IMG/VR virus record: IMGVR_UViG_3300045988_133735
Source of the DNA: a virus
Strand: one strand, 5' to 3'
DNA: 64,000 bases
In this document: positions 8,682-47,481 of the stretch, piece after piece
Numbering within the stretch: position 1 is the stretch's first letter
How the letters are laid out: every line of letters starts with the position of its first letter
Position numbers and translations under genes: made by a program
Notes under the pieces: model-generated
The model's input: the letters and a program-made list of their open reading frames with translations, nothing else
What the model was told of the DNA's origin: nothing
Database searches by the model: none

Positions 8682-8685
8682 ATTT

Positions 8686-10365: not shown

Positions 10366-10377
10366 AGAGCCACACCT

Positions 10378-11265: not shown

Positions 11266-11285
11266 TTCATCACCTCGATTCTGTA

Positions 11286-11314: not shown

Positions 11315-11320
11315 AGGTAT

Positions 11321-11418
11321 GTCAAAAATTCATCGAGCGAATTTATGACGTCCTATCTTTGTATAGGTGTGTGGCGGGAGAGCTCTGGGTGTAACAGCCC
11401 GGGGCTCTTTCTGTTTTT
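11321..11418 (+). ncRNA. candidate ~100-nt small RNA (promoter to intrinsic terminator)
   Basis: Bounded by the promoter above and the terminator at 11379-11418. No RBS-preceded ORF inside. Lies in the only sizeable gap of the lysis module. Confidence 0.35.
11379..11418 (+). terminator. rho-independent terminator (strand-specific)
   Basis: AGAGCTCTGGG (11379-11389) pairs with CCCGGGGCTCT (11398-11408), followed by TTCTGTTTTT. The two non-Watson-Crick positions are G-U on the + strand but C-A on the - strand. Confidence 0.6.
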
Positions 11419-11437
11419 ACATATACTTTTAGTTTGT

Positions 11438-11896: not shown

Positions 11897-12513
11897 TCAG
11901 CGGCCTCCTTCTGCCCGGCGGTCTCAAGATATTGCTTCAGAACAGGGTCGTAGTTGATTTCAATTGCGTTCAGCTCTTCCATTGTAGTACAAGCCTTGAT
12001 AGCAATTTCTAATTCCTGCTGACGCGATACAAAGGGTTTTACATATGTACCGATTGCCAATGCAAGTGCAGCCAGTTCTTCATAAGTCCATTCTACACAT
12101 TCGTCGCCGGTTGAGTTCCATGTCAGCTTGAACGGTTGCCCGGCGGATGCAGAAATTTGATACAGCGCCAAATTCGAAGTCAACAATGCCTGTTTTTCAC
12201 TGGTAACACTGTAGTACTTTCCATCGGACCATTGAAGCGGATGCGAGGCTAGATATGCGGAGAGAGCAGTCTTAGACTCAGAAATTTTATTGTTTTTGAT
12301 TGGTTCCAAACTTTGTTCTTCACTTGGAACAGTTCCGTCCGATACGACTTCGTAGCAATCTTCTTGTTCCTTAACAGTCCACAATTCTTCACCCGGTTTT
12401 GCTGCGGCATTGTGATTACTCAGTTCTTCAACCATTGATGAATACAACTCACACTCTTCTGTCGTAATTATTGGTTTAGATATCTGATATCCAATTTTTA
12501 TTTTTTGATTCAA
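11893..12513 (-). CDS. tail-fibre-associated protein (DUF4376-like C-terminal domain)
   Basis: The C-terminal half (LTSNLALYQ...EWTYEELAALALAIGTYVKPFVSRQQELE) resembles the DUF4376 domain found downstream of fibre genes. Directly follows the fibre gene. Confidence 0.45.
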   Translation of the reverse strand: MNQKIKIGYQISKPIITTEECELYSSMVEELSNHNAAAKPGEELWTVKEQEDCYEVVSDGTVPSEEQSLEPIKNNKISESKTALSAYLASHPLQWSDGKYYSVTSEKQALLTSNLALYQISASAGQPFKLTWNSTGDECVEWTYEELAALALAIGTYVKPFVSRQQELEIAIKACTTMEELNAIEINYDPVLKQYLETAGQKEAAE

Positions 12514-27450: not shown

Positions 27451-30258
27451 TTAAGTATCTTTCTTATTATCGATATATTTTTCTTTGAGGACATTCTCAT
27501 AAGTGATATAGGGATAATACGGATAATAGCGGCTCAATGTAACATTCATTGTGCCTTCTCCAATGTTTTTATCTATCTTTTTTATAATCCACTCAACTGC
27601 AATATCAGACTTTAAGTACTTTGCTGCATACTTTACCTTTTCATTTACGTCAAGCCACGGAATCATGTGCATACTTAATGTGATAGAATCCGTCAGTCGG
27701 CAATTTTTCCATAGCGTGTATTTACATACCGTCATGGTTGATTCGTCCGATGTATATCCGTCAAACTCACTACCCGAGCACACAAGGTTTCTTCGCCCGA
27801 TTTTATCAATCGTCAACCGACTATTGTATAAGTCATCAATGCGGTTTGGGTCATTTACGACAACGTACTCAAGGTTGTCACATGCCTCCGCAATCTTGTC
27901 TGCCTCAATTTGTTTTGCGGTCGGCATTGCATCCACAAACTTCGTCATAGCATGAGACTGAGACTGACCAATAAAATAGACCCGGCTCTCAATAAGAAGA
28001 GCAGGGTCTGATATCTGGATCTCTGTATTCGTTGCTGGATTATACTTCACATACACGGTGTCATAATTTTTCGTGGATGGATTATAGATTTGTTTCGGGT
28101 AATAGCGCACCTGTGGATCACGCTGTTCTTTTTCGTATTTGCCTGTAAGTGCGTTAAACTTATATGTGAATGCACCATCAGTTGCCTGATTTAACCAGTG
28201 CTCACCATATTTTATGACGTAATAACGCCCTTTCTTTAGTAGAGAGGTATCTTCTGGTTCGTCCTCTCCTTTTTCGTTGGTAACAGCCTTAAACAACATC
28301 ATAGGTCCATACACTGCACGTGTCGTTTCCCGATACTGTCCTTCTCCAGTCGGATTCGATTTAATTGTCGTAACAAGGTTCTCAACACAGATTCTTGCAT
28401 TTATCGCAATATCTTCTGGGCAAATAAACGAAAATCTTGTACCGTCCTGAATACTTGCTTGTTTTAATTTTAACAATAAAATAGACGCGCCGGTATCATT
28501 TGGGTTCATGTTGTAGCTCATATTCAATTTATTATCTTTAAGCAGCGTAACAACATCATTCCATTCTTTTGTTCCTTTTTTACAATACACGACCTCGCCA
28601 GTACCGTCTGGGTCATTTTTTTCAAGTTTATCCTTACAGAAATAGTCGCTGGAGTTTGATGCACCCCATACCTCTACACAGTTATGGATCTGACCGTAAT
28701 CGACGCTGGCATCTTCGCTGATAACCATACTCTTAAATGTATCCTCGTCCAGAACAACGGGGTCGTCGTAGCCAGATGGAATTTCTTTGCACACAAAAGT
28801 ATCGTCGTCAAAATACATCTCGAAAGGAAAGTAGAGGTCTCTCAACTCCGTCAAAATGTTCCAGATGGTCGTGCCAGTATTATATTCTAGGTCGTGCGGA
28901 ATTCGCCGCACCCAGTAATCTACCATACTCTTTGTCAGTCCTGAAAGTTCAAATGTCTCCTTAATGGAATCGCGAACATAGTGCGGCTTCTTTTTGTCAT
29001 CTTCGTAATAGTTGACCCCATCCTTAACCACGAGCTTGCGGTCATACATCGGAATGCGCGTTGCGTATCCGGTCAGTGTTCCACCAAGCGTGCCGTCAAG
29101 CAAACAGGTCATATCAAGGCAAGAAAGGCTTAGTTTGTTCGTTGTGGCATCATAACTGTATCCATTTTGCTGTATTGCATATACGCCAGCGCCATACCAG
29201 TGTACACCATCTGTATCCACAAAGTTCGTGCCAGTTCGTATTTCAGCCTCACCAGAGTATAAAGCGTGATAGAAGTTATATATCTGAGTTAAACCATCTT
29301 TCAATTCCCATATCGTTCCTTGAATATCGTGCATTGAATAGCCAACAAATACACTTGTGTCATGGAAATATTTATCAAGCTCTTCTTTGGTACAGCCAGC
29401 AATCGCTGCAACATCGGCTGCAGATAATATCCTTCCTGCTGCGATACCACCCTCTACAGCAGCAATCATATTCTTTACACGTATTGTTTTCCCATAAATC
29501 GTACAGTCAACACCAAAACTATCAAGTTCAAGTATTTTACTTTGTAAAGTTGAACCATCTCTTTGAACTGCATCACAAGCTGCATTGAAAATCACTTCAA
29601 TATAAGACCTGATATCTGCATTCAGCAGCGGAATAACAACATCTCCTCCGCCTATCAGTAGTGGAGTGTATGCAATCTCATACGTCTTGCCATTTGTTGT
29701 ATAACCATCTGAAGATGCAACAACGGTCGAATATGTTCCAACATCTCCTTGCTCTTTCACAAAAGATGCATATTTCTCTTTATTTTCATCTGTCCAAATA
29801 ATACGCTTACGGTTTATATTTTCGATATTGCCATACTGTTCATAACCGCCAACCTTATATCTCCACTTTGCTTGCCTTAACTCTGTGTCCTTTTCTTTGT
29901 ATATCGCACTATTTTTGATTTTTGCATCGATCTCTTCTTCTGGTATTCTTACCGCGTCCGCCCCAACAAGCGGCATACTTGTTGGAGCTTTCATACCAAT
30001 CTGTAAGCGCAGCATCTTGCTCGTCCACTCCTCTGTGGAGAACTGAGAAATAGAGAATCCACTCTTCGGGAAGATATCAAGATTAAAAGTGCGCCGTGTA
30101 TCTGAGTCTGCGTCAATCGAGTTAGAACCACTTAACGCAAGTCCTTCGATCGTATCAATAATCTGGTAGTCTTTATTCAGCAGTTCAATACGACAATATA
30201 ATCTTTTTGACCGGCTTTTCAGTAAGGCCAGATCTTCTTCTGTAGGTAAGTAAGTCAT
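27451..30258 (-). CDS. baseplate / tail-tip structural protein (935 aa)
   Basis: Assigned by size and position between the distal tail genes and the receptor-binding protein. Family not recognised. Confidence 0.5.
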   Translation of the reverse strand: MTYLPTEEDLALLKSRSKRLYCRIELLNKDYQIIDTIEGLALSGSNSIDADSDTRRTFNLDIFPKSGFSISQFSTEEWTSKMLRLQIGMKAPTSMPLVGADAVRIPEEEIDAKIKNSAIYKEKDTELRQAKWRYKVGGYEQYGNIENINRKRIIWTDENKEKYASFVKEQGDVGTYSTVVASSDGYTTNGKTYEIAYTPLLIGGGDVVIPLLNADIRSYIEVIFNAACDAVQRDGSTLQSKILELDSFGVDCTIYGKTIRVKNMIAAVEGGIAAGRILSAADVAAIAGCTKEELDKYFHDTSVFVGYSMHDIQGTIWELKDGLTQIYNFYHALYSGEAEIRTGTNFVDTDGVHWYGAGVYAIQQNGYSYDATTNKLSLSCLDMTCLLDGTLGGTLTGYATRIPMYDRKLVVKDGVNYYEDDKKKPHYVRDSIKETFELSGLTKSMVDYWVRRIPHDLEYNTGTTIWNILTELRDLYFPFEMYFDDDTFVCKEIPSGYDDPVVLDEDTFKSMVISEDASVDYGQIHNCVEVWGASNSSDYFCKDKLEKNDPDGTGEVVYCKKGTKEWNDVVTLLKDNKLNMSYNMNPNDTGASILLLKLKQASIQDGTRFSFICPEDIAINARICVENLVTTIKSNPTGEGQYRETTRAVYGPMMLFKAVTNEKGEDEPEDTSLLKKGRYYVIKYGEHWLNQATDGAFTYKFNALTGKYEKEQRDPQVRYYPKQIYNPSTKNYDTVYVKYNPATNTEIQISDPALLIESRVYFIGQSQSHAMTKFVDAMPTAKQIEADKIAEACDNLEYVVVNDPNRIDDLYNSRLTIDKIGRRNLVCSGSEFDGYTSDESTMTVCKYTLWKNCRLTDSITLSMHMIPWLDVNEKVKYAAKYLKSDIAVEWIIKKIDKNIGEGTMNVTLSRYYPYYPYITYENVLKEKYIDNKKDT

Positions 30259-33580: not shown

Positions 33581-36500
33581 TTAACGTCTATTCAGTTCCT
33601 GTACAACCTTGTTCGGCAGACGATTTACCAACTCACGAGCCAGTGCATCGCTATCACCAACGGGATTGTTCACATTCACATCACCAATAGACAGGGAAAT
33701 ACCACCAGCGTCGCGGCTTTGCACCATAGAAGCAGAACTATGTTTTGCCAATTGATCGCTGAACCACTTGTCTGGATTGCCGCCCATCTCAAACAGGCGA
33801 GAGGTAATATCAGCAGGAACAACACCATCGCCAGTCTCAAGATATGTATAACGTCCAGAAGCTGGCTTACGAACAATAAGTTCTGAACCTCTTTCGTCAA
33901 CGTTTGCAAAATGATTCGTTTTAGAAGATTTAAGACCATTCGCGTGACCACCCAAAAAGAAACCAGCAAAACCTCCCAAAAGAGTACCAATCAATGCTCC
34001 TACAGGTCCACCTATTGCCATACCCGCAGCTGCGCCCAGACCAGCACCAGTAAGAGTTGTAGCAGCCGTTTTGACTGTTTTATCTTCATTGGCGGTTGCG
34101 TCATTCTTTTTGTCTGTTTCGTCAGTTGCTTTATTCTCTTCTTTAGATACGATCTGTGTAGCGTTAATTGTGAGATTTGTTGCGCTCTTTTGTGTGTTTT
34201 CGGCAGTTTCAGAACTACTATTCGCAGTGTCTTTTGTATTCTCGGCAGTTTCTTTACTCTTGCCGAAAATATCCTTACACAGATTTACGATTCCACCAAT
34301 AGGACTTATGTCCCAGAAGAACGAAGCAACGGACTTTATTGCCTTCTTACCAAAGCCATCTTCTTTATTGGACCAGATTTTCTTCTGATTCTTCATGGCC
34401 TTTGTGCCGCCATAAATACCAAGCCCGCCAGCTGCAAGAATCGGAATCGCAGCGGGCCCAGCAGCAGCCAAGGCGCTTCCAGCTGTACCAATAAGTTTTC
34501 CAGCACCAGCAAGCAACTTACCTCCGCCACTAAGTAATGTAGTTCCAACCTTACCAATCCCGCCAAGAATCGTGGAACCAATCTTGCTCTTACTAACAGC
34601 ATTACCGACAGCCTTAAATCCGTTTACAACTGTGGAAACAATGCCGCCGCCTTCGCCGGAACCGCCGAATAGGCTTTGAGCGCCACCTTTGATCGTGTTC
34701 CAAATATTTGTAAACGCATTGATAATTCCATTGCCAGAACTTACAACCTGTTTTGTAATATTGTTATTCGCGGTTGTTAATATGTTCTTTAATGCGGTTC
34801 CCGTTTCTGTTGCAGTATCAACGAGCGTGGTTTTGACAGCGTTGACTGCCTGCTTGGCTGCATTAACATAAGATGTGCCAGAACTTGCAGCCTTTTCGCC
34901 ACCATTATTTAAGAATCCTTTTATCGTATTCCACAGACCTTTTGTGCCGAGATCTTTGTACTCACCAGTCTTAAACATGGAATACAGATTATTTAGTTTT
35001 GTTAGCGTATTTATCAGTGATTCAAGGTTTGTAATCAAATTCTGGATGCCGGTGATCGCGCTGCCAGTATTTAGACTTGCAATGATCTTATTGTGATATC
35101 CGTCCAGTGAGCCTTCCATCTGAGATAGACTCATCTTCTGGATCTGCGCAGTGTACTCAAGCTCCTTCTGGTAATCCTTCCAGCTCTTGCCGATATCATC
35201 CATGACCTCAGACAACTTGTCCTTGAACTCATTGTACTTCTTGATCTGGTCGTCAATAGCCTTTTCAGCGTCTTTATTATTCCATTCACGCTGCTTGTCG
35301 GCAAGGTCTTCGCGTGCAGTACGCACATCTTCGGCGTTTGCCTGCCACTCGTAACCATTCTCAGTGTACACACGGGTCGTGCGCTGTTGCTGGGCACGGG
35401 CGAGAGCATCTTGTGCCTTGGAAAGTTCAATGGCGCGTTCAGTAGCCTCATTATTTTCTTCCAGAGCTTCCTTCTGCTTATTCAGGGCTTCAATCCGCTT
35501 GTCGATGACTTTGCCCATAGCATCGCCCCAAATCTTGAGGTCGTTATTAGATTTGTCATTTGCGGACGAAAGGAGAGAGAGGAAAGAAGAAAGGATGTCT
35601 TTTGCATCAGATAGAGCAGACTTGAAACTTTCGACCGCATTTTTCGCGTCCTCCCAGTGAGCAATCAGTTTCGCCATCACTTGGGCATCGGTTTCTTGAA
35701 CATCTTGATATTTCTGATTATAAACAGCAGTCAGTTCATCTAAAGCTGCTTTCTTGGCAGCTTCTTTATCCTCATCAGATGCGTCAGAAGAATCAATACG
35801 ACCAACTGCACGGTCATATTTTTCTTTTGCAACCTTATATTCTAAAGTCGCCTTAACCAATACGTCGTACTCTTCTTCGGTAGGAGCACGTACAGCATCG
35901 TACATCTTCTTGAGATAATCACCGTATACAGTTCCATCAAATTCCTTCATTAGTGGTTCAAGCTGCTTCACATACATATCACGCAAACCAGTTGCGTTGA
36001 TTTTATATGTTCCATCATCTTGTATGAACTGATCGAGGAAAGACTGGTCAATTTGACCGAGCTCTTGAAGAGTATCTTGACTTTTAAGACTTCCGGTTTC
36101 CTGAATCTCTTCCAAAGCGCTACGGAAAGCACTAAATGTACTCTGGAATTTATCAATTTTAGTGTTTGCATCTTCGATGTCCGTGCCAAAACCGTTCCAG
36201 AAATCAGTCATGGAGATATCGCCTTTATTCAGTTGTTCAAGGCGATTTGACCACAGCTTAGCCAGACCGGTTTGCCCACTATCATTGGCAGCATTGATAA
36301 TTTTCCCAACAAGAATTTCAGCGGCCTTCTTGATCTTGTCATCATCGACATTGAGATTTCCGTTCTCATCAAGGAAAATGCCATCGAGTTCTGGGTGCTT
36401 GGTAACTAGTTCGGTGACTTTCTTTAGTGTATCGTAATCCGCAATCTGTTCTCCATTTGCATTATCAATTTTAGACAGATCATGAAGGATCTCCATGCCA

Positions 36501-39262
36501 GACTGGAATTCGTCTGTTTTACCAGTTGCTTCATCCAGCGCGGTATTTACACCTTCAATTGCATCCTTCAGTTGATTGAGCGAAATAGTCCCGTTCTTAG
36601 CGTGAGTGTCAAGATATTCAAGGACTTGATTGTACTGTCCGATCTTACCCGTGCCATCATTTGTAGCGGCAGCATGTTTTAGTTCTGCCTGAATCAGATC
36701 TCGACATGCAGTGGCATCTACAACCAATTCATTTCCTTGCTTTTTTAAACAAGAAGTATATTTGGAGTCAAGCCCCATGAGGGATTTCATCGTGTTAAGA
36801 CTTATGCTACCCCACTTGTTGTACTCCTCCATAGCAGAAGTCAGAGTGGACCATGCGTCAAGAAGTGTTTTAGAAGAATCCGCTGCCTTGTTCGAAGAAT
36901 CAGCGGCCTTTTTCGAAGAATTGCTAAACCCATCGAGCTGATTGCGTAAACCGGCAGCACCATTCATTGCGGCAGACATATTATTTCCAATAAGCGTTAA
37001 TCTGGTGTTCAATGCGTTCATAACACCGTCAATTTTAGCTTGAACAGCGTCAGCATCTTCTCCATTGGCTGCTCCCTGTGCAGCGGCTAATGCGGCAGCA
37101 AGTTCGCCTGTTCCGACAGTGGCATCTTTCAAAGCTGGGCATAAAGCAGTAAGCTTATTCTTTTCATCTTCAGTTGCTTCAGTAAATGTCTCGGCTTTTT
37201 CTGCAGCGTCTCCCTTTGCAATCGCATTTAGTTCTGATATCGCCTGAGAAATAGCTTCCATTTGAGCTTCTGCATATTGAGTTGCCAACAAATCTGCATA
37301 CGCACTTTGATTGACTTGGAGCTTTCCATTAACAAGTTCAAGAGTATTAAGATACTGGTCATCCATTTGTAAAAGAGCCTGCAACGAATCAACGCTCATG
37401 TACCCATACTGGTTGTATTCTTCAACAGCGCTAGAACAGGCTTTGTATGCTGATTGAATATTATCGATGACGCCCATTGTTTTTTCGAGTTTATCGGCGT
37501 AATCGTCAGCAGCTGCAGAGTTACTAATTTGCACAAGACCGAAACTTTCAAACACACCAATTAGAGACTCAAATGATATTTTATTCTCGTCTGCAGTTTT
37601 ATGGAGTTTTTCAAGCGCAGCTGTTTCGGTCTCAGTTTGATGAGAAGAGTCCTTATCAATGTTGATTATTGCCTCGCCACTCATTCCACTAAATGCATCA
37701 AGCCCATTGAATGTTTTCCAATCGCTTTGCTGAGAATCACCATTGTCGATATCATTCTTGATTTGTTTTATTTTTTCTGAGAATATATCAAGATTGGTAG
37801 TGTCAATACCTGTATTATCCTGTGCATTCGCCAGAGCTTTAGTGGCTGCAGTCATTGCGTTCGTGCCGGCAACATATTCGTCCTTGTACTGAGTGAAACT
37901 GTCAGCGTCAGTCTCGTAGCTGTTCATTTGCTCAGACACGGCAGAGGAAAGCTCTTCAACCTTGGTTTTCTGGGATTTAAAAGTTTCATTCAGAGCATCG
38001 AGTTCTTTCTTTTTATTTGCATACTCTTCAGAATCTTTTCCGCTAGAAGCTTCAATTTGGTCAAGTTCAACCTGAAGATTACGACGTTTTTGAGTAGTAT
38101 CTTCGAGTGCTGCTGCATACTCATGGAGAGATTCAGTCTTAGAAACTTTCTCTGCAACCTGATGAGTGCCAGCATTTGCACCACCCTCGGCATAAGAAAC
38201 ATTTACTGTGCGGGATTTCACAATACTGTCTTCTGTTTTATCATTCACAACAGCACTTGTGTCGGCATTTGCTTTATCGTTCGCGTCCTTCTCCAGTTGC
38301 TTCTTGAGTTCGAGTTGAGCCTGCAACATATCGTTGATGGCTTGTAACCGCTCGCGCTCGGCAGGATCAACGATATCCTCGATCTTTTTAACACCAGCGT
38401 CCTTCAGAGATTTGTTAAGCTCGTCAATCTTGGACTGAATCTCTTCAACATCCTTAGTGGCTTGCTGTGCAGCATCGTGAGAATCATTCATTGCAGCGAC
38501 AAGTTCTTCAGAATGCGTTTTTAGGTTCATAAGATAATCGACAATTTTAGTTGCGATAAAGGCAACAGCAGCTACACCAAGAGAGAGGAGAAGTTGTTTG
38601 CCATATTGAGCTACTACATTCCAGGCCTTTTGAGCCGCAGTAAGAGCTACTGTGGCGACCGTGCTCATCTGTTTAACGCTAATTTCTTTCAAGAATGCTT
38701 GAGAAAGTTTATAGACACCATTTTCTTGTTCTAAAATTCCAGCGTTGAACAGTTGTTGCGTTTTACTTGCATCGGAACAATGATTGGCGTAATCTTCCAT
38801 CAAAGCAATAGCATCTTGTGTGTTTGGAAGTGCGAGTACCCCTTTAGCGTCTTTTAACCCGCCTGCCTTCATGAATTCGTTCAGAACACCATTTGTAATG
38901 CCGTCTTTTTGAGATGCTATTTGTTCAAATAATTGAGAATTGAATTTTTCACCTGTTTGAACAGCATTTTTTGTATTTTCAATATAGTCCTCTAAGCCTT
39001 CATCAAAAGAAGACAAACTGAGAAATGCTTTTTGTTGAGCTTCGTCAAGATTTACAAATTGCGCAATAAATCCATCAATGCTTCCAATATCGTTAAAAAT
39101 TGAATGACTATCAAATTTTTTTGCATTTCCGATTTGATAATTTCCCAAGAGCATATATTTCTGAAGGATTTGCGGCAAATCTTTAAGCTGCTCTGACGCT
39201 TTTAATGTTTTATCAAGAGATCCATCTAAGGTCGTTAATTCACCTATTGACTTGTTGATTGT
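33581..39262 (-). CDS. tail tape measure protein, exon 2 (1893 codons)
   Basis: No RBS or ATG at its 5' end, and the frame is open 30 codons upstream of the TTG. Shows TMP-type coiled coils, the Gly-rich hydrophobic block GGKLLAGAGKLIGTAGSALAAAG, and repeated YN(Q/K)(Y/W)G..S...(L/M).(A/S)L. Joined to exon 1 by the predicted splice. Confidence 0.8.
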   Translation of the reverse strand, partial: TINKSIGELTTLDGSLDKTLKASEQLKDLPQILQKYMLLGNYQIGNAKKFDSHSIFNDIGSIDGFIAQFVNLDEAQQKAFLSLSSFDEGLEDYIENTKNAVQTGEKFNSQLFEQIASQKDGITNGVLNEFMKAGGLKDAKGVLALPNTQDAIALMEDYANHCSDASKTQQLFNAGILEQENGVYKLSQAFLKEISVKQMSTVATVALTAAQKAWNVVAQYGKQLLLSLGVAAVAFIATKIVDYLMNLKTHSEELVAAMNDSHDAAQQATKDVEEIQSKIDELNKSLKDAGVKKIEDIVDPAERERLQAINDMLQAQLELKKQLEKDANDKANADTSAVVNDKTEDSIVKSRTVNVSYAEGGANAGTHQVAEKVSKTESLHEYAAALEDTTQKRRNLQVELDQIEASSGKDSEEYANKKKELDALNETFKSQKTKVEELSSAVSEQMNSYETDADSFTQYKDEYVAGTNAMTAATKALANAQDNTGIDTTNLDIFSEKIKQIKNDIDNGDSQQSDWKTFNGLDAFSGMSGEAIINIDKDSSHQTETETAALEKLHKTADENKISFESLIGVFESFGLVQISNSAAADDYADKLEKTMGVIDNIQSAYKACSSAVEEYNQYGYMSVDSLQALLQMDDQYLNTLELVNGKLQVNQSAYADLLATQYAEAQMEAISQAISELNAIAKGDAAEKAETFTEATEDEKNKLTALCPALKDATVGTGELAAALAAAQGAANGEDADAVQAKIDGVMNALNTRLTLIGNNMSAAMNGAAGLRNQLDGFSNSSKKAADSSNKAADSSKTLLDAWSTLTSAMEEYNKWGSISLNTMKSLMGLDSKYTSCLKKQGNELVVDATACRDLIQAELKHAAATNDGTGKIGQYNQVLEYLDTHAKNGTISLNQLKDAIEGVNTALDEATGKTDEFQSGMEILHDLSKIDNANGEQIADYDTLKKVTELVTKHPELDGIFLDENGNLNVDDDKIKKAAEILVGKIINAANDSGQTGLAKLWSNRLEQLNKGDISMTDFWNGFGTDIEDANTKIDKFQSTFSAFRSALEEIQETGSLKSQDTLQELGQIDQSFLDQFIQDDGTYKINATGLRDMYVKQLEPLMKEFDGTVYGDYLKKMYDAVRAPTEEEYDVLVKATLEYKVAKEKYDRAVGRIDSSDASDEDKEAAKKAALDELTAVYNQKYQDVQETDAQVMAKLIAHWEDAKNAVESFKSALSDAKDILSSFLSLLSSANDKSNNDLKIWGDAMGKVIDKRIEALNKQKEALEENNEATERAIELSKAQDALARAQQQRTTRVYTENGYEWQANAEDVRTAREDLADKQREWNNKDAEKAIDDQIKKYNEFKDKLSEVMDDIGKSWKDYQKELEYTAQIQKMSLSQMEGSLDGYHNKIIASLNTGSAITGIQNLITNLESLINTLTKLNNLYSMFKTGEYKDLGTKGLWNTIKGFLNNGGEKAASSGTSYVNAAKQAVNAVKTTLVDTATETGTALKNILTTANNNITKQVVSSGNGIINAFTNIWNTIKGGAQSLFGGSGEGGGIVSTVVNGFKAVGNAVSKSKIGSTILGGIGKVGTTLLSGGGKLLAGAGKLIGTAGSALAAAGPAAIPILAAGGLGIYGGTKAMKNQKKIWSNKEDGFGKKAIKSVASFFWDISPIGGIVNLCKDIFGKSKETAENTKDTANSSSETAENTQKSATNLTINATQIVSKEENKATDETDKKNDATANEDKTVKTAATTLTGAGLGAAAGMAIGGPVGALIGTLLGGFAGFFLGGHANGLKSSKTNHFANVDERGSELIVRKPASGRYTYLETGDGVVPADITSRLFEMGGNPDKWFSDQLAKHSSASMVQSRDAGGISLSIGDVNVNNPVGDSDALARELVNRLPNKVVQELNRR

Positions 39263-39275
39263 CAAACTGTATACT
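39247..39275 (+). promoter_or_regulatory. sigma-A promoter for the + strand intron cassette, straddling the 3' splice site
   Basis: TTGACT (39247-39252, inside exon 2), 17-nt spacer, TATACT (39270-39275, inside the intron). Confidence 0.55.
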
Positions 39276-39323
39276 AATCTTAGTGGTCGGCAAAGATTAT
39301 TTGTGAAATAGGTGATAAGAATT

Positions 39324-39929
39324 ATGAGAATTGGTGAAATCGAAGCAGATATTGACTATAGACACGGCAAAGCGAATAAATGGGGCTTTTGGACAATAGG
39401 AGCTTTAACTGCTGAGGGAAAAAAGATTCTGAAAAAGTATCCAGACTATAAAATCCTAAAAGATGATTGGAGAGTAAAAAATGATGACGAATTTTTTGCA
39501 TCAGTTGTTTATGCCTATATGGTTGATTGTATTTTACAAGAATACAGCGACAACGAATATTTAATGAATGAATATGTAAAAGCAACCGAAGATAAACTAG
39601 CGACTCGCCCAAGCGGAAAAGGAGAGATGTCTCGCAAAGGTATAAACGAAGCATTCTTAAAGTCGTTCGAAGATTATATAAAAGAACAAAATAATCCCGG
39701 TATACTTAAAAGAGAACAAGAACAAGAAGAAAAAGAAAGAGCAGTAGCGCGAGCGCTTTCAGCCGAATACGAAGCAAAACATCCTCATATCACTTGTCCC
39801 TACTGCAAATCCACGAACACCGAAAAGATCAGCACCGTGAGCCGCGCTGTGTCTGTGTCCCTCGTGGGCGCTGCCAGCGGGAAGATCGGCAAACAGTGGC
39901 ACTGCAAAAACTGCGGCAGTAATTTTTAA
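39324..39929 (+). CDS. intron-cassette protein C: unknown N-domain plus C-terminal zinc ribbon
   Basis: AGGTGA RBS before ATG 39324. C-terminus reads CPYCKSTNTEKISTVSRAVSVSLVGAASGKIGKQWHCKNCGSNF. Confidence 0.55.
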   Translation: MRIGEIEADIDYRHGKANKWGFWTIGALTAEGKKILKKYPDYKILKDDWRVKNDDEFFASVVYAYMVDCILQEYSDNEYLMNEYVKATEDKLATRPSGKGEMSRKGINEAFLKSFEDYIKEQNNPGILKREQEQEEKERAVARALSAEYEAKHPHITCPYCKSTNTEKISTVSRAVSVSLVGAASGKIGKQWHCKNCGSNF

Positions 39930-39941
39930 AGGAGAATTAAA

Positions 39942-40277
39942 ATGAAAGTCAATCAGGACATTATGAACCTCATTTGCAAGCTTGAATACAGAATTGGCGA
40001 CACATGTGCAAATAGCGACTCGTACAACGGATGGACTGATGAATGGGGCGCTGATTTTCGGTATCCTGTAACCGTTGACGGCCATGGGAAATTCAGAGGT
40101 CGAATTGACGATCTTGGACTTGAACCGGAATCGCTTGGCGATATCTATTATAAATTTGGCGCAAACGAGATGCATATTGGGTACGGTATCAAGCATGTCC
40201 TAGAAGAGCTTGAAGATTTATATGGTCTTGATTTTGTAAAGCTTGAAGCAGAGCGGAAAGCAAAAGCGCAGAAGTGA
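39942..40277 (+). CDS. intron-cassette protein D (hypothetical, 111 aa)
   Basis: AAAGGAG RBS 8 nt before the ATG. No family recognised. Confidence 0.5.
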   Translation: MKVNQDIMNLICKLEYRIGDTCANSDSYNGWTDEWGADFRYPVTVDGHGKFRGRIDDLGLEPESLGDIYYKFGANEMHIGYGIKHVLEELEDLYGLDFVKLEAERKAKAQK

Positions 40278-40353
40278 TTGTATTACCAGCAAAACCTAGT
40301 AAACAATTCTATCGTAAGAACTGTGGGTATGAATGGTAAGGATGTGAACCAAG

Positions 40354-40920
40354 TTGTCTTTGGTGATGGCAATTGTATGCACTGACGGAATCGTTGTATC
40401 TGGCGATTTTAGAAGATCGAGATCTATCACAAATCCACAAACAGGGGATAAACAAGTTGTAGAATTTTACGACGATACGCACAAATTGATTAAAACAAAA
40501 TCCAATCGTGTAGTTGGCCATACTGGAGACTACTCTTTCAACAGCGGAGAATTAGTAGAAGACACGATATGCAGTGTGCTGCAATTGACAGACGCACTGA
40601 ATTCTCCAATTGATAGTGAGTTTGCGTATCTTGTTAGCTCCATTAGACATAACAAAAACTCACTCATTGAAGCTGGTATTATAAACGGACATAGAATTGT
40701 ATTGACATGGAAACAAGGCGAACCAATTAAACAGATAGTTATAAAAGGATGCGCAATTGGAGATATTGATGTATTCGAAAAATATAAAGAGGAATTCGAA
40801 TGTGAAATACAAGATATAACAATTAAAGAAGCTGTCCCTTTATTGCAAAAATATAACAGACTGATTGCGAGCGAAACGCCTACGATTAGTCCAGACTGTG
40901 AAGTAATGATCATTGAATAG
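40354..40920 (+). CDS. intron-cassette protein E: HslV / proteasome-beta-like Ntn-hydrolase homologue
   Basis: MSLVMAIVCTDGIVVSGD aligns by eye to HslV MTTIVSVRRNGHVVIAGD, placing Ser2 at the Thr nucleophile position with the GD at 17-18. HKLIKTKSNRVVGHTGD fits the Lys33 / AG.A.D region. TTG start. Confidence 0.45.
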   Translation: MSLVMAIVCTDGIVVSGDFRRSRSITNPQTGDKQVVEFYDDTHKLIKTKSNRVVGHTGDYSFNSGELVEDTICSVLQLTDALNSPIDSEFAYLVSSIRHNKNSLIEAGIINGHRIVLTWKQGEPIKQIVIKGCAIGDIDVFEKYKEEFECEIQDITIKEAVPLLQKYNRLIASETPTISPDCEVMIIE

Positions 40921-41088
40921 TTATGCTTGCCACCCGGAACAAACACATTTTATATAGTTTGCCCCATCTTTGGATAAAATATAATATTCGTCTTCATGCG
41001 GCTCGATACAGTTAATATTTTCTTCTTTTTCAAGTTCAACAAAACCTTTTTGATTACTTTCGCGATAATAAAATTTCTTATATGTCAC
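40921..41088 (-). CDS. intron-cassette protein B (small, start uncertain)
   Basis: GGAGGAG RBS 5-7 nt before the in-frame GTG at 41088. The longer track ORF (to 41160) would have to encode the terminator hairpin. Its stop abuts the stop of gene E. Confidence 0.3.
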   Translation of the reverse strand: MTYKKFYYRESNQKGFVELEKEENINCIEPHEDEYYILSKDGANYIKCVCSGWQA

Positions 41089-41107
41089 TGTATCTCCTCC
41101 TTCCATC

Positions 41108-41154
41108 GAAATATAGCAAAAGCCCGGCCTCCCAGCAATAGGGAAGTCGGGCTT
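41108..41154 (-). terminator. strong hairpin terminator after gene A (may act in both directions)
   Basis: AAGCCCGACTTCCC (41154-41141) pairs with GGGAGGCCGGGCTT (41133-41120) at 13 of 14 positions, followed by TTGCTATATTT on the - strand. Confidence 0.55.
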
Positions 41155-41179
41155 GTTCATTATGATGACTGCACAGCAG

Positions 41180-41512
41180 TTACTTCAGAAGTTCAGCAAT
41201 CTCTTCAGCAGTCATACCGCTGGCCAGTGCATTGGCAACAATATCTTCTGCCTTTTTACGATTCAGCTCTGCCGCAATCTTTTCGTCAGCATCAGCCTTT
41301 TTCTTTTCGAGCTTTACAATCTCTTTGTTGAGTTTTTTCAACTCTGCTTCTTTTGCTTTACGCTGGGCGTTCAATGCAGCGATATTATCACCAATAGTTG
41401 CAATCTCCTGAGCAATAGATTCTGCGGCAGTATTCTTTTCAGCGATCTGTGCTGCGTAATCGATACCATCGAGAACCTTTGCTTTATTCTTGCTTCCTTT
41501 AGTACGTGCCAT
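41180..41512 (-). CDS. intron-cassette protein A: Lys/Ala/Glu-rich coiled-coil protein (110 aa)
   Basis: GGAGG RBS 9 nt before the ATG. Has its own consensus promoter and terminator. N-terminus MARTKGSKNKAK is basic; C-terminus is SGMTAEEIAELLK. Confidence 0.6.
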   Translation of the reverse strand: MARTKGSKNKAKVLDGIDYAAQIAEKNTAAESIAQEIATIGDNIAALNAQRKAKEAELKKLNKEIVKLEKKKADADEKIAAELNRKKAEDIVANALASGMTAEEIAELLK

Positions 41513-41566
41513 AATAAAATACCTCCACTACATGCGTTTTGTTTACATGTTGTTTTTAATATTTTT

Positions 41567-41595
41567 ATTATAGCCAGAAATACTAAGATAGTCAA
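41567..41595 (-). promoter_or_regulatory. consensus sigma-A promoter inside the intron (drives gene A)
   Basis: Minus strand reads TTGACT (41595-41590), 17-nt spacer, TATAAT (41572-41567). Confidence 0.65.
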
Positions 41596-41611
41596 CAAAA
41601 ATATTTTTCCA

Positions 41612-41988
41612 CTTTTGACGGCAGGGGAAAGACCGCCTGTAATTTTTCCGCTGGAGCGTGTTGCGCCAGCAGTGATTTGGAGCACCCCATAGTGAATCTG
41701 CGGCGTTGTTACGCACGTAGTTCCACTCCGACATTATGCTCTCTGAAGCGTCTCTGGCAGTGCCTATTATAATAATGTAGGCGCATGCAGAGCTTGCCTG
41801 CGGATTCCTTTCGGTTCCCGGACGAGAATTACCCAAACTCGCCGTGGCTAGGCCACCATGTTCGTCGGTTTTACTAAATACTCCCTCATGCTTCGCAATG
41901 ATATAATAAAATACCTGCGGAGCACTTGTTCCGTGTCACCACCCGGAGTATTGCTGGGCACAATCATGAAACCCGTCATTTTGGGTTT
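41612..41988 (-). ncRNA. group I ribozyme core (P1 to P9)
   Basis: CATTGCGAAG (41900-41891) resembles the P element. AATCCGCAGG (41806-41797) resembles Q. TTCAGAGAGCATAATGTCGG (41747-41728) resembles R (Tetrahymena GUUCACAGACUAAAUGUCGG). P7 is G(A)GAGCA (41743-41737) with TGCTCC (41684-41679) and a bulged A. P9 is GCTGG/CCAGC (41670-41650). The segment is GC-rich relative to its flanks. Confidence 0.7.
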
Positions 41989-44900
41989 ACCCAGCTGAGT
42001 TGCAAATGCTGTGATGCCCAGTCCAGCAGGAAGGGCACCAGTGAGATTAATGATTTTATCAAGAAGTTTAACAATGGATGTGAGGAAAGATACGCCGCCC
42101 TTCACGAGGCCAGAAGAGAGAACGTCTTGAGAAAGGACTTGGAAGCTTGCATCGAGCTGTGCGAGACGGCCATTGATACTGTCGAGATACTTCTCGTTCT
42201 CTTCCCATGCCACGTTGGCGCTGTTAGCAGCGGATTCCATAGCAGATTCAGCAACGTCAAAGTTGTTTAGAATAGCACTAACTGCATTTGCGTTTCTCTT
42301 TCCGCCAATCATTTCAGTAACATTTGCCTGCGTTACATCGGACAGACCACTCCATACTTGAGACAGCTCTTTCATGATTTGATATGTACTCTTGAAATTT
42401 TTGCTATCCAGCATGATGTCAACGCCAGTCAGAGATTTCAGTTCACTGCGGAGCTCAGACACAGAATTGGCCATACCGTCAACTTCAATACCTGCATTCT
42501 CTGCGTCACTTTTAGCAGCACGGAGATACATTGACAAACTTTTTAAAGTTGTACCGACCGTATCTGCATCTTGGATAACTGCGTTTGCAGCAGTACCAAG
42601 CGCGATAGTTTCTTCCAGCGTATTATTAGCGGCCGACATAGCAGCAGAACTGCGAGTCAAGATTTCGCCAAGGTCTTTTGCAGTAACGGGCTGTGTATTT
42701 GCGACAGCGTCAATTTTATTAACGACATCTTCTGCTTGATCGGCTAACAGTCCAAAGCCTTGTAAAGTAGAAATCAAATACGAAGACGAGGTGTTAACGT
42801 CATCGATATTATCGCCAACGTTACGAAGTAGGGTAGAGTAGGTTGCTAAATTCTCGGCGTCTTCATCAGAATAACCAAGCCGCTTCCAATCTGCGGTTGA
42901 ATTAACATAGTCACTTATAGATACGCCTAACTTTTGAGCCTGTTCTGCGGCACGTCCCATATACTCTTCAAGGGATTTTCCTGTATACTCACTGACTTTT
43001 CTTAACTCAGTTACTGCCGTATCAATTTCGACCACATTCTGATACACGATCCGCAACGCGTCTTGCATCTTGTGCAGTGCTGCCATAGTGATCATAGTAC
43101 TCAAATGCTGGCCAAACAGTTTTTCGAACACATCAAGCAGATTTTTTGATTCGAGACCCAACTTTTTAGATTCAGCGCGAAGCTCTGCATATTTCTTTTT
43201 CAGTTCACCAATTTTCTCTGGTGCGTCACTTTGATTCAATGCTTCAAGCAACTCATAGAGAGACTTTCCAACGTCTGTTCCGTCAAGCTTTTTATGTTCT
43301 GCAATATAATCATGAATAGTTGCCTTCAGATTAGCGACTTCCATTGATGCCTTATTTATAGATTTTTCACGAGAGGCTTCTTTATTGAAATCTTTTGCTT
43401 CTTGTGTTGCTTCTCTATAGGCGAGGTGTAATTGATTTATTGCATCCGTTACAGAATTAATTTTATCTGGAGATATACCAAGGTTATTCTGTGCCCATCC
43501 TTTGGCAGCTGATACCGGATCTGAAGATTCGTTTATCGTATCGAGTAAAGTTTTGAGCTTTGAATCTTTTTCTTGTAGTTTGCCATAAAAAGAATAATCA
43601 GTACCATAATTCTTCTGGACATCCTTCATTGTGGCCCTATTTTGAGATATTGCATCGCTGACAGATTTTAAGTTTGATATCTTTGTACTTTCTCGTTTTG
43701 CGGCTTGGTTTTCCGCCTCTTCGACGGCTTTAACTTTTCTTTCGATTTCTTCCCAAATCTTTTTGACTTCTACAAGTTTTTCTTTATAAGCGTCAGTTTG
43801 AGGCTCAAGCTCATTTAACTGCTTGAGAAGATTATCGATACCATCAAATTTGACATTCTGGAGACTTCCATCGGCCTGCATCTGTCGAGCAACTTCAACA
43901 CCCTCGGCAATTTTGATACCTTCGCGTTCAAGTTTCTTATAATTGCTCTTCCAAATGGTGTATTGCGCGTTGGCTTTGTAAGATTCACGCTTTAGCTCAT
44001 TATAATCAACTGCATAATTCTCGTATGTGTTTGGATTTTGAGCGCTAAGTGTGGCCGCTTTGGTGATAACTCCATTAATAGAATTCTTTAATTTCTCGTT
44101 AGAACTGCCAGAGGCTTCTTCTGCAAGCTGATAGAACTTCTTTTCAATACTATCAACGGCTTTCGTAAGGTCTTTTTGCTTCTTTTCTACGGTATCTATA
44201 ACTGCCACAACAGATTTCCAGTTTTCTTCTGCGGCTTGAATTGCGTTGTTGTACTCTTCTGTACCAACCTTTGCTTTAGCGATCTGTGATACAAGTTCTT
44301 GCTGCTTTTGAAGCGCGACTTGGATATCCGTCGCCGTTTTACCCTCCGCTGCGGCTTCTTCTACTGTTCCATAAGTTTTTTGAGCGCCGGACAGTTGATT
44401 TACAAGATTTTGATATTGGTCGTTGCGTTTATTTTCTACGGCACGATTAGATGAACGGTATTCCTTTTCAGCCAAATCTGCTATATCGCGAACGTCTGTA
44501 AACTGATAGGGATTTACACCAGTGGAATCTTGGAAATTAAACATCAATTCAGAAAGACGAGTTTCTTCTTCTGCCAACTGCTTGTTTACTTCATCCAAAT
44601 CCTCTTTATCTTTTGCATCAACAAATCTACCTCTTTGTTTTTGCAGAGATATGATTTTCTGATAACTTGAAACAATATCGTCGATAGCTTTACTTCCATC
44701 AGAATTATCCTTCTTCTCTTGTGCAATAATATCGCGGGCAAGAAGTTTATTTTCTGCTTCTTCTTGCTTTTTGGTTGCCTCAGCGGCTTTTTCTTTCGCT
44801 TCTGTTTCTTCTTGTAATGCTTTTGTCGCTTCTTGTTGAATCTTTATGGCTACCTGTTGTTTTGCAATATCAAATTTATTATCAGAACTTGCTTGTGCAT

Positions 44901-47481
44901 AATAATATTTAAGTGCCTGTTTACGAATACTAGTGACTTTTAATGGATTATATCCAACTTCGCTTGCAGAAAGCATTTTTTCATTAAGCTCTGCTTCATC
45001 GGCAGAAATTTGATCTTCAATTTGGTGTAAGTCAAATGCCTGCTCTGGCTTTGTATATCTTCCACGTTTGCTTTCTAAACTAGTAAGTTCTCGATAGATA
45101 GATTCAATGGCTTTTAAATTATCTAACTCTGCTTGATCATATTTCTTCTGTGCAGTAACTACATCTCGATTAAAAGATCTATTTTCAGCATCAGCCTTTT
45201 TTTGAGCAGCATCAGCGATTTTTTGTTGAAGCTGTTCTTCTTGCTGCAACAATCTATTAGCTTCTTGTTGTGCTTTTACGTCTATAATGTTTGAATCTAT
45301 TTTGGATTTTGTGGTTCCCTTCTTCTTGGATTCTTTGCCAGCCGCTTCTTTAATTGCATCAACAATCTTCGCATTTTTCAGAATCAGATTGCCCGCGATA
45401 TCGAATTCCTTTTTCGAAATCTCAACATCATCAATCTTGACATCAGCTGCTTTGATTTTTACAGAGCCATTAAGTTTCAGGGGATCTGGTCTCTTGATAT
45501 CTTCATCTTTGAGTTCGACCTTGCCCTTTAAATCAATGACATCAGGTTTTTTAACATCATCCTTTACGTTCTTCTTTTTGCCCTTGGCGGTATCGTTAAC
45601 CGTAACGTTAGACACTTTGCCTTCCAGTTCGACTGCCGTTTTCGGAGGAGTGATGTCAGAAACCTTAAGTTCAACCTTACCGGGGATTTTCACAGATCCC
45701 TTCGGAGGAGTTACGTCTTCTACTTTAAGAGTTACCTTGCCGGGAATATTAACCGGTGCAGTCGGATCAACCGTGACAGTTCCGGGAATAGACACAGGAT
45801 TTTTGACATCCACGACAACGTCTGCATCTGTGATAGTAACTTTACCACGTATCGGCACAACATCATTAGCATTACTTTGATTATCATTCTTAGGGATATC
45901 TGGTTTATCAGGTTCATTTAACGATTTATTCAACTCATCTTTAACATGTTTTGCTGCATCTTTTTTAAGATGGAGATCAATAGGGGCTGAAATATCTTTA
46001 AACGCCTCATCAACTTTAAGCTGAAGAACGGCCGGATCAATATCGAATTTAACGTCTTTTACATTATAGACCCCGTCTTCAATCTGATTTTTTCCACCAC
46101 TATTTTGAGCGGCTTGCATTTTAATTTCTTGATTCTTGATAAAATCTGCGAGGTTTGTTGTTTCTGCAAATTTTGCAATTTTATCTGTATCAAATTTCTT
46201 GAAAAGGGCTTCATATTGCATGAGTTCATTCGAAAGTCCTTCGCGTGTTAGCACTGTTGCGGCGAGAATGCTTTTTTCTAAATCCACAGCAGTTTTACGC
46301 GCATCATTGATTGCATTCTGTTTATCTGCAATATTGCTCAATACCTTATCGAGTTTTTGCCCATACGTTTCAATAGTCGAAGCGTCTAAATGCCCAGAAG
46401 TGTCTGTTTTTTGTGCAGCGTTCGCTTCTTTTTGGACGTCTTTTATTTCTGCCTTAACAGCCTTTGCACTAGAGTTAATTTCTGATATTTTAGCATGGAC
46501 ATTCCCAAGCTCACCTGATACATTGTCCAGGACAGAATTGAACGATATTTTATTATCACCAGTTAATCCGTTTATTAACTTGGAAAAATCCATGACTTGG
46601 TCAGTTGTTTTAAATGCGTCTTTTGATTTATCAATAATCTCATCTAAAAAATCATCGATGGACATGAATTCTTTCAGCTTTTTGTTTAAATCAAAACCCT
46701 GTGCATTAAAGACATCCAATTTATCTTTGAATTTGTCTGAATCAAATGCAGAATATACAGAATCTAAAATTGATTTTAATTCTTTTGCCTTACTTCCAAG
46801 CTGAGTAAATTGATCATTAAATGCATTTATATTAATTTTATCGTCATCTAACCAATTGTCTGCATATAATCCAGCCCAAATATCTTTTATTTCATTTACA
46901 AGATTTTCGACTTGAGATAAATTTCTTTTCTTTGTTGTATCTGAAATTTTATAATTCAATAAATCGTTGATATTAAAAGTCCCAGATAAACCACCAACAA
47001 ATTCATCACTTACCTCATTCGCAACTTGTTTAGCAATTGTTTTGAATTCTTTCGTAGGGAATATATCATTTACAAAAGAACCCAATCGATCTGTATTACT
47101 TGTTAAATTTTTTAGATAATAACTTAATTGTTGATTGACTTCTTTTAGTTGATTTTTTAACTGCTTAGTCAACTCACTCGAAAAATCATCAACGTTAACA
47201 CCAACAGTAACTTTCGGAATATCGCCAATGCCGTTAATTTGCTGTTGAATATCAGTTTTTAGTTTTTCAGTATCGACAACAGGCGTTATACTTGCAGTTG
47301 CCTTGATGTTTTTTAATTTATCTTCGACCTTCTTTTTTATGCCATCAACATTAGGGTCAATATCAATCTGTGGCTTTTCACCGCTTTGTTTTACTTTTCG
47401 CTCAATGCTCGTCTTTAACTCTGTTGGTTTGATTTGTGGATCTACCTTAACTTTGATACTCAGTTCTGGTTCACGCGCCAT
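41989..47481 (-). CDS. tail tape measure protein, exon 1 (1831 codons)
   Basis: Long coiled coils, then a TP901-type TMP core (ALRIVYQNVVEIDTAVTELRKVSEYTG...ADWKRLGY...STLQGFGL). The 47 codons after ...ATQLG in the track ORF are intron read-through. GGAGGAATATAAT precedes ATG 47481. Confidence 0.8.

Follow-up and report, generated by a model that had tools for sequence, protein, structure and literature searches.

We analyzed a 64,000-nucleotide (nt) stretch of viral DNA (IMG/VR virus record IMGVR_UViG_3300045988_133735; the whole stretch is referred to here as the window), in which the gene for the phage tape measure protein is split by a 2,726-nt element on the minus strand. The element has a ribozyme-like RNA core at its 5' end, a short conserved RNA hairpin close to its 3' end and, between the two, a cassette of five open reading frames (ORFs) distributed over both strands. 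We consider it likely that the element is a group I-type intron within the tape measure gene, and that this intron houses an exchangeable cassette of accessory genes equipped with their own promoters. The evidence for this interpretation comes from the anatomy of the split gene, from splice-site signals and covariation in the RNA, and from the turnover of the cargo among related phages.

A tape measure gene in two pieces

Two very large minus-strand ORFs in the window (41848-47481 and 33581-39265) are separated by a gap of 2.6 kb. The first has a match to PhageMin_Tail (Pfam) at residues 1513-1727. The portion of the first ORF that we assign to exon 1 aligns to residues 71-450 of the 1,509-amino-acid (aa) tape measure protein of Enterocloster phage CB473P1, and exon 2, which lies in the second ORF, aligns to residues 793-1456 of the same protein, in an order colinear with exon 1. 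We searched IMG/VR with a spliced-junction query consisting of the last 170 codons of exon 1 and the first 170 codons of exon 2. In 53 of 53 close relatives, the match spanned positions 1-170 or 171-340 of the query, and none of the matches ran across the joint. By contrast, relatives at ~44% identity have a single open frame of >1,800 codons through the equivalent point, indicating that the gene is split at one exact codon boundary and that the split is specific to this lineage. The first-pass annotation of this DNA, made from the sequence alone, had taken the flanking ORFs for a single tape measure gene, and the colinear alignment to the CB473P1 protein and the shared break at 170/171 bear this out: the ORFs are the halves of one tape measure gene of ~3,724 codons, interrupted after codon 1831. 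The parts of the gene and the RNA elements of the interruption are as follows, in the direction of transcription of the gene.

41989-47481, minus strand: tape measure exon 1, 1,831 codons, last residues ...ATQLG
41608-41988, minus strand: ribozyme core, ~380 nt, with, from 5' to 3', P1 and its extension P1a, the P10 guide, a hairpin with a GNRA loop, P2.1, P3, the extra hairpins H1 and H2, P4, P5, P6, P7, P8, P9 and P9.1
39273-39301, minus strand: 3'-terminal intron hairpin, an AU-rich covarying stem with the conserved loop YGACCAY
39263, minus strand: terminal G (omega G), with the 3' splice site between 39263 and 39262 and G|ACA(A/G)T conserved
33581-39262, minus strand: tape measure exon 2, 1,893 codons, first residues TINKSIGEL

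The element extends from 41988 to 39263, with boundaries at 41989|41988 and 39263|39262. As listed, the ORF of exon 1 continues for 47 extra codons into the intron, to a stop at 41848. Inspection of the sequence at the exon 2 junction revealed neither a ribosome-binding site nor a start codon belonging to exon 2, and joining of the exons preserves the reading frame (...ATQLG|TINKSIGEL...). Exon 1 ends in ...CAGCUGGGU, and exon 2 starts with ACAAUCAAC, its first bases being ACAAUC. A putative guide, 5'-GAUUGU-GCCCAGC-3', is located 30 nt inside the intron. The 3' half of the guide, GCCCAGC, pairs with the end of exon 1, GCUGGGU, to form a P1 helix with a U.G wobble at the splice site, and this helix (GCUGGGU/GCCCAGC, with the U.G) is present in 48 of 48 sequences. 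In a divergent member of the family (locus L061), P1 is UGUGGGU/GCCCACA, with two pairs altered on both sides. Directly 5' of GCCCAGC, the sequence GAUUGU exactly complements the first six bases of exon 2, ACAAUC, as in a P10 helix; the exon 2 starts of relatives read ACA(A/G)U(C/A/U). We delimited 43 complete introns using 6-kb flanks, and all 28 of their distinct 3' ends have a G immediately before exon 2.

A 22-nt motif from the core occurs in 57 IMG/VR contigs of 15-150 kb, most of which exceed 75 kb, and a looser motif added three more. Wherever the flanks were readable, the element interrupts the tape measure gene, and the site is the same every time. The core of one relative (L001) is ~95% identical to that of the window, the adjacent ORF A being only ~70% identical, and the differences between the two cores are grouped as paired changes in stems. 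We aligned 48 distinct cores to measure covariation. RNAalifold recovered P1, P1a, P3, P6 and P8 from this set. We also tested a named structure that comprises P1, P1a, P2.1, P3, H1, H2, P4, P5, P6, P6a, the P7 pseudoknot, P8, P8a, P9 and P9.1. Of the cells of this structure, 92.5% pair, whereas sliding the partners lowers the figure to 36-44%; changes on both sides are seen in 17 pairs and 124 cells, and none of 500 shuffles reached the observed score. The helices P3 (CCGAC/GUCGG), P4 (CGGG/UCCG), P5 (CC-GAAA-GG) and P7 (GAGCAU/GUGCUC) are invariant among the 48 cores. In L061, a compact and divergent core that was found using nhmmer, a C-G pair of P7 is replaced by U-A, H2 and P8 are altered yet paired, and H1 is absent. 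The small hairpin that follows P1 has the loop variants GUGA, GCGA and GUAA, all of which are GNRA tetraloops. Each of the core helices expected from P3 to P9 can be drawn, and the core contains stretches similar to the classical Q (AAUCCGCAGG) and R (UUCAGAGAGCAU) elements.

Several properties of the core speak against its assignment to the group I family. P3, P4 and P5 show no variation in our data, and hence have no support from covariation; two hairpins are found between P3 and P4, where a short J3/4 is expected; and P5 consists of only 2 bp, closed by GAAA. In addition, the Rfam group I model (RF00028) gave no match, either at the gathering threshold or at E ≤ 10, to the window, a 3.6-kb piece, the 411-nt core or L061. 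Since Rfam is blind to the element, its status as an intron, which the first-pass annotation took as given, had to be established here. We did observe an Rfam match resembling SNORD87 (27.7 bits, E = 0.019; 41954-42021, plus strand), which we rejected as an artefact, since it is accounted for by the complementary strand of the intron's P1/guide hairpin.

The lack of an Rfam group I match would be expected if there were no intron at all, and if two separate tape-measure-like proteins were instead encoded on either side of an intergenic accessory island that follows some other structured RNA. In keeping with this explanation, the first ORF terminates at a stop of its own (41848), and the promoters and terminator of the cassette (see below) are arranged as in an ordinary accessory island. 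Moreover, distant relatives divide the tape measure region elsewhere: in two loci at 44% identity (L123, 4570-5755; L122, 4205-4454), the region is divided upstream of the intron site into two large ORFs, and in L123 a 316-aa ORF sits between them. A search of Rfam with the division point of these two loci gave no match. We nevertheless regard the absence of an intron as quite improbable. One 13-nt stretch of the element complements both the last 7 nt of exon 1 (with the U.G) and the first 6 nt of exon 2, and the pairing with exon 1 is preserved in L061 by two double changes. The base before exon 2 is always G, exon 2 lacks start signals at the junction, and the joined exons are in frame and match uninterrupted homologues. 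Thus, the splice-site signals that define a group I intron are present (P1 with a U.G, P10 and a terminal G), together with a core whose structure is supported in part by covariation. As the earlier annotation had supposed, the interruption is very probably a self-splicing intron of group I type, in a subgroup that has yet to be classified.

The intron is laid out as a core (41988-41608), cargo (41607 to ~39302) and a 3' element (39301-39263), and its RNA has two parts: the ~380-nt 5' core and ~60 nt at the 3' end that comprise the hairpin, the terminal G and the P10 partner. The 3' hairpin lies 10-40 nt upstream of the terminal G. Compensatory changes occur in 7 of its 10 pairs; 88% of cells pair, compared with 37-55% when the partners are slid, and no shuffle of 500 reached the observed score. 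The hairpin overlaps the -10 region of a putative promoter, P_C, on the other strand (see below), and we considered the possibility that the inverted repeat is a DNA operator for P_C. We judged this less likely because G.U cells outnumber A.C cells by 13 to 1, which favors an RNA fold on the intron strand. As a possible explanation of how the distant 3' end reaches the core, we also looked for covariation between the GACCAY of the 3' loop and GUGG stretches in the core, for which the sequences are not informatively variable; one candidate core partner of the GACCAY loop was rejected because it proved to belong to a small hairpin, forming its stem and GNRA loop.

The cassette and its proteins

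The cassette occupies ~2.3 kb and appears, from its motifs, to consist of two convergent transcription units, P_A-A-terminator-B and P_C-C-D-E. Its features are listed here in the direction of the intron strand.

41567-41595, minus strand: P_A, promoter-like site upstream of ORF A, TTGACT-17-TATAAT, 11/12
41180-41512, minus strand: ORF A, 110 aa
41113-41154, minus strand: hairpin and U tract resembling an intrinsic terminator, after ORF A
40921-41088, minus strand: ORF B, 55 aa, GTG start at 41088 after GGAGGAG
40354-40920, plus strand: ORF E, 188 aa, TTG start
39942-40277, plus strand: ORF D, 111 aa
39324-39929 (or from 39312), plus strand: ORF C, 201 aa
39247-39275, plus strand: P_C, promoter-like site upstream of ORF C, TTGACT-17-TATACT, 10/12

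All five of the ORFs that the first-pass annotation had placed on the two strands were found, at these positions, in the list of ORFs. The stop codon of ORF E ends at 40920 and that of ORF B is at 40921, so that the two sets of ORFs converge and abut. A longer reading of ORF B, from an ATG at 41160 (40921-41160), would overlap the terminator-like hairpin. This hairpin has a 13-bp stem (-24 kcal/mol; z = -2.4, strand folding), after which the sequence reads UUUUGCUAUAUUU, and is nearly invariant in L001.

P_A and P_C are the two best promoter-like sites in the region 39000-42100. A promoter-like site heads the sense-strand gene set in each related variant, in the same place as P_A. P_C straddles the 3' splice site, with its -35 box within exon 2 and its -10 box within the intron; the -35 box is the complement of codons 4-6 of exon 2 (AAG TCA ATx). 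The octamer AAGTCAAT and the -10 box, which mostly reads TATAAT, are kept in all 28 distinct 3' ends, despite the exon 2 protein being merely 30-35% identical between subgroups. Hence, the earlier proposal of a near-consensus sigma-A promoter for each set of ORFs agrees with the match of the two sites to consensus (11/12 for P_A and 10/12 for P_C) and with their conserved position in relatives.

All of the proteins A-E have homologues encoded in related introns, and A, C and E have additional homologues in a large protein collection. ORF A encodes a protein with an AT-hook-like N-terminus (RTKGSKNK), a coiled coil and a C-terminal tail resembling a helix-turn-helix. It has 421 homologues, some of which are labeled by their source as DUF4315 or as coiled-coil proteins. 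Its matches in family libraries (Pfam, PHROGs, NCBIfam and PADLOC) are coiled-coil noise, among them a weak match to PHROG 686, and it has no match among PDB sequences. ORF B has homologues of 49-64% identity in several related introns, and ORF D is found in most related introns; neither B nor D matched any entry in Pfam, PHROGs, NCBIfam, PADLOC or PDB sequences. ORF C has 239 homologues. Its AlphaFold2 model (predicted local distance difference test score, pLDDT, of 83.6) combines a small beta sheet with a bundle of helices and ends in a zinc ribbon (CxxC...CxxC), and a Foldseek search of PDB and BFVD with this model gave no match at E ≤ 0.001, and no nuclease. For the five ORFs together, the matches in PADLOC, NCBIfam, PHROGs and PDB sequences were limited to coiled-coil and zinc-ribbon noise.

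The model of ORF E has a pLDDT of 93.6. In a Foldseek search of PDB it matched Anbu, 20S proteasome beta subunits and HslV (E = 1e-8, probability 1.0, TM ~0.7), and a weak Pfam match was seen to the connectase N-terminal domain. Among 30 homologues of E, Ser2 and a Lys are invariant and an Asp is nearly invariant, and these are catalytic positions of N-terminal nucleophile (Ntn) hydrolases. As modeled, ORF E is an Ntn hydrolase fold of the proteasome beta-subunit/Anbu/HslV type, an alpha-beta-beta-alpha sandwich, and its nucleophile is likely Ser2.

We searched the cassette for homing endonucleases, examining C and E by structure and A, B and D by sequence profiles only. None of A-E matched a LAGLIDADG, GIY-YIG, HNH, His-Cys box, PD-(D/E)xK or EDxHD family at E ≤ 0.1 in Pfam, PHROGs, NCBIfam or PADLOC. 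The earlier annotation had recognized no homing endonuclease motif and had raised the possibility of a cryptic endonuclease fold; we found no such fold, the structure of C being unmatched and that of E proteasome-like, and none was indicated by the profiles of A, B and D. The scanned cargo families of related introns likewise contained no endonuclease in Pfam, at E ≤ 0.05-0.1, and no endonuclease-bearing member was found among the introns compared. No transposase family (TnpA, TnpB or other) and no defense family was detected in A-E or, with Pfam, in the scanned cargo of relatives.

Cargo turnover among related introns

The 43 complete introns range from 2,003 to 5,196 nt in length and have 24 cargo architectures, of which that of the window (A, B, E, D, C) is found in five introns. 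The genes follow a fixed order: the core, then sense-strand genes at the 5' side, then antisense genes at the 3' side, with ORF C last, by the 3' element. On the sense strand, an optional 90-104-aa ORF and a retropepsin-like protease (DTGA motif) precede ORF A, which is followed by ORF B, a 185-aa membrane protein or a small ORF. On the other strand, E, D and a ~310-aa ORF come before C. ORFs A and C are the sole universal cargo genes, being present in 43 of 43 complete introns, and C always abuts the 3' splice site, in antisense orientation. Copies of the last 19-29 codons of ORF C, which encode the zinc-ribbon tail and are 89-97% identical to those of the window, are found between cargo modules, for example upstream of D; we observed them in L008, L010, L015, L022 and others. 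The presence of these remnants at module joints suggests that they are recombination scars, and that cargo is exchanged at shared linkers. The first-pass annotation had proposed that the intron is a safe harbor for accessory genes inside an essential gene, and an intron that is fixed in its lineage, with cargo that takes 24 forms in 43 introns, has the properties expected of one.

Two further introns extend the range of cargo. The compact, divergent ribozyme of L061 (120-1800) also lies in a tape measure gene, on a contig of 130 kb whose binning is to Bacteroidales. The locus stops before the 3' splice site, and its cargo includes an antisense gene for a 330-aa protein, with membrane and coiled-coil segments, that is unlike any of the cargo families. 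L127 (8930-15069) comes from a related phage whose tail genes are SPbeta-like; there, a different sequence interrupts the tape measure gene at the corresponding point. This sister intron matches the Rfam family Intron_gpI from end to end (24.9 bits, E = 7e-4, under the gathering score of 50). A homologue of ORF A (85% identical) follows the ribozyme, and is itself followed by ~5 kb of cargo, in which one gene has a SocA/Panacea domain, two are proteasome-like and one is retropepsin-like. The tail module of the same phage also contains a gene for a tyrosine integrase (4953-5942).

The association of an ORF A homologue with a second, different group I ribozyme would be expected if the element were a mobile intron with an unrecognized endonuclease, either A or C, that cuts intron-less alleles, the other genes being hitchhikers. 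Also in keeping with this explanation, A and C are the only genes common to all 43 introns, and they occupy the two ends of the cargo; in addition, A has its AT-hook-like start and helix-turn-helix-like tail (with the weak PHROG 686 match), and C its zinc ribbon. We consider a hidden endonuclease unlikely, however. Neither A nor C matches a nuclease family, and the confident model of C has no counterpart in PDB or BFVD. Moreover, C lies on the strand opposite to the intron, behind a putative promoter of its own, and the presence of the intron in 53 of 53 close relatives means that there is no mixture of intron-plus and intron-minus alleles of the kind that marks active homing.

A piece of the cassette was also found in a bacterial chromosome. 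A homologue of ORF C lies in a 524-kb bacterial contig (L066, 9851-13135; GCA_041328755.1, JBGKPS010000001.1), between a diacylglycerol kinase gene and groES. The locus retains the last 72 codons of A, an intact membrane-protein gene that is 95% identical to a phage copy, and an intact C, and it continues through the 3' hairpin of the intron and across the 3' splice site into exon 2, of which ~160 nt are left. The ribozyme core is absent. The relic adjoins an integrase remnant, and SIR2, HicAB and Eco57I genes are found beyond groEL. The flanks of the relic recur in two other assemblies, in one of which the genes beyond groEL differ. Since the chromosomal copy includes the 3' splice site and part of exon 2, it is torn-out phage DNA rather than the product of transposition. 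Its genes are presumably expressed from their own signals and kept as useful; the relic fits autonomous expression and a role that benefits the host, without proving either. That an intact C persists here, in a locus with no ribozyme core, is a further argument against C being the endonuclease of a mobile intron.

The position of the relic beside an integrase remnant bears on another possible origin of the cassette. In IStrons, a group I ribozyme at the 5' end is combined with kilobases of coding foreign DNA just upstream of the 3' splice site, and splicing renders the insertion harmless to the host gene (PMC3984707; PMC4227781). The layout of the present intron, with a 5' ribozyme and foreign DNA just before the 3' splice site, is IStron-like, and it could be a chimera of that type, in which the cassette is what remains of, or still is, a transposable element that settled in the intron's 3' end and is able to move the whole unit. 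We regard this as highly unlikely. The scanned cargo families include no TnpA, TnpB or other transposase, the intron is found at a single codon position in all ~60 phage contigs, no inverted repeats bracket the cargo, and the chromosomal copy has exon 2 DNA attached. The first-pass annotation had considered the related possibility that the cassette arrived as a separate insertion sequence (IS)-type insertion and is missing from the homologues of the intron; in fact, the cassette is present in every homologue, with neither IS-type ends nor a transposase.

Prophage setting and comparison with known systems

Elsewhere in the window, the gene for a tyrosine integrase that has an arm-binding domain (7014-8336) is flanked by those for FolD (5447-6274) and AroD, a type I dehydroquinase (8686-9486), after which come minus-strand phage tail genes. 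The region 5447-9486 is thus a prophage-chromosome junction, and the window is the end of an integrated prophage. We found no tRNA gene in positions 1-12000 of the window. Downstream of the tape measure gene there are large minus-strand ORFs at 12525-16382 (1,285 aa), 20631-27434 (2,267 aa) and 27451-30258 (935 aa), which presumably encode tail or baseplate proteins. Among the phage records of INPHARED, the only similar sequences are two unannotated metagenomic scaffolds. Among genomic contigs, the 22-nt core motif was found in only two, both from metagenome-assembled genomes of doubtful binning (Bacteroidales and Peptococcaceae).

With an integrase gene between folD and aroD in the window, and judging from the promoter motifs, expression of the cassette from the prophage is plausible, and our best guess is that the cargo consists of prophage-expressed accessory genes. 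In the lysogen, the late operon would be silent and the cassette would be transcribed from P_A and P_C, supplying accessory functions. During lytic growth, the late transcript would run through all 2.7 kb of the element, and the ribozyme would then excise the core and the cassette together, restoring the reading frame ...ATQLG|TINKS.... Because excision would restore the frame, an insertion that would otherwise be fatal to an essential gene would cost nothing. The site would in this way have become a stable platform, on which the accessory genes that lie between A and C are swapped by recombination. The conserved 3' hairpin may help to carry the distant 3' splice site to the core, a role that would resemble that of the flanking stem of IStrons (PMC4227781).

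Not all of our observations sit easily with an intron that carries a self-promoted accessory cassette. The number of promoter-like sites in 39000-42100 is at the level of chance (9 found versus 8.7 expected), such that the weight given to P_A and P_C rests on their position and conservation. The terminator-like hairpin faces the sense direction inside the intron, where late transcription of the tape measure gene must pass through it, and convergent transcription from P_C would counter late read-through. None of the cargo genes of the window or of the sister intron matches a known defense family in PADLOC. Lastly, we found neither an intron free of cargo nor a close relative without the intron, and the order of events therefore cannot be reconstructed.

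The intron can be compared with several known genetic arrangements. Group I introns of phages that carry homing endonuclease genes, such as those of T4 (td, nrdB and sunY), SPO1/SP82 and Twort, similarly combine a self-splicing intron type with an essential phage gene and a peripheral ORF. In T4 sunY, the intron ORF is also located 3' of the core, and group I introns have reportedly been found in phage tail and tape measure genes. Those introns contain at most a single endonuclease ORF, which lies on the intron strand, and their distribution is patchy. By contrast, the introns described here carry three to eight genes, none of them for an endonuclease, spread over the two strands, and the intron of the window is present in all close relatives. 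Phage morons, such as lom and bor of lambda, are accessory genes that sit in late operons but bring a promoter and a terminator of their own. The cassette resembles a moron in its autonomous-looking arrangement of promoter, genes and terminator, its location in the structural-gene region of a temperate phage, its probable expression from the prophage and its variability between relatives; however, morons lie between genes, and the present island is inside a coding sequence, where it would be tolerated through RNA splicing. The fungal mitochondrial gene rps3 lies in a group I intron of the large-subunit rRNA, and is thus another case in which a gene other than an endonuclease is stably lodged in such an intron. 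By contrast with the variable multi-gene cassette described here, rps3 is one organellar housekeeping gene, encoded on the sense strand.

The closest likeness in layout is to the IStrons, such as CdISt1 of Clostridioides difficile and BcISt1 of Bacillus cereus, which occur in Firmicutes and in which the ribozyme is also at the 5' end and the cargo also lies before the 3' splice site. The cargo of IStrons derives from IS200/IS605 or IS607 elements, with tnpA/tnpB on the intron strand, and IStrons are found at many sites, whereas the intron described here has no transposase and occupies one fixed site. A further difference is that the present intron carries genes on both strands, with their own putative promoters, and that its cargo has been swapped between phages in many combinations. 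The ribozymes of IStrons belong to class IA2, have P7.1 and P7.2 and are found by RF00028 (PMC4227781); the present core lacks the P7.1 and P7.2 hairpins and is not found by that model. The first-pass annotation offered the arrangement as one of which it knew no described example. In full-text searches of the literature, we found no group I intron described with a variable, two-stranded and self-promoted multi-gene cargo lacking an endonuclease, which is not proof that none has been described; one may exist. Membership of the known family of group I introns is probable, and what is new is the arrangement of the cargo and its turnover at the level of the population.

As an extension that we put forward tentatively, the tape measure introns of large temperate gut phages may be long-lived, integron-like platforms. 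Such a platform would consist of a two-part ribozyme that tolerates 1.6-4.8 kb of cargo on both strands, with a promoter for each set of genes; A and C, with the promoters, would serve as a recombination or regulatory frame, and codons of the exon would double as a -35 box. The cargo, which comprises proteases, membrane proteins and, in the sister intron, a Panacea-type gene, would serve from the prophage in phage-phage or phage-host conflict and could be captured by the host, as is suggested by the chromosomal relic.

Self-splicing introns of bacteria and phages are usually regarded as selfish elements whose only gene, if they have one, serves their own mobility. The intron described here appears instead to be used as real estate, on which changeable and independently expressed genes are kept within an essential structural gene that does not suffer from their presence. 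Should this be confirmed, an entire family of such introns escapes the standard Rfam model, and nature would have supplied a case of a group I ribozyme that functions despite several kilobases of cargo transcribed on both strands, which may be of interest for engineering. Confirmation would also single out roughly a dozen uncharacterized protein families that are widespread in gut phages, among them a retropepsin-like protease and a proteasome-like hydrolase of phages, as candidates for functions in lysogeny or in phage-phage conflict, and it would reveal a new way for phages to store and trade accessory genes.

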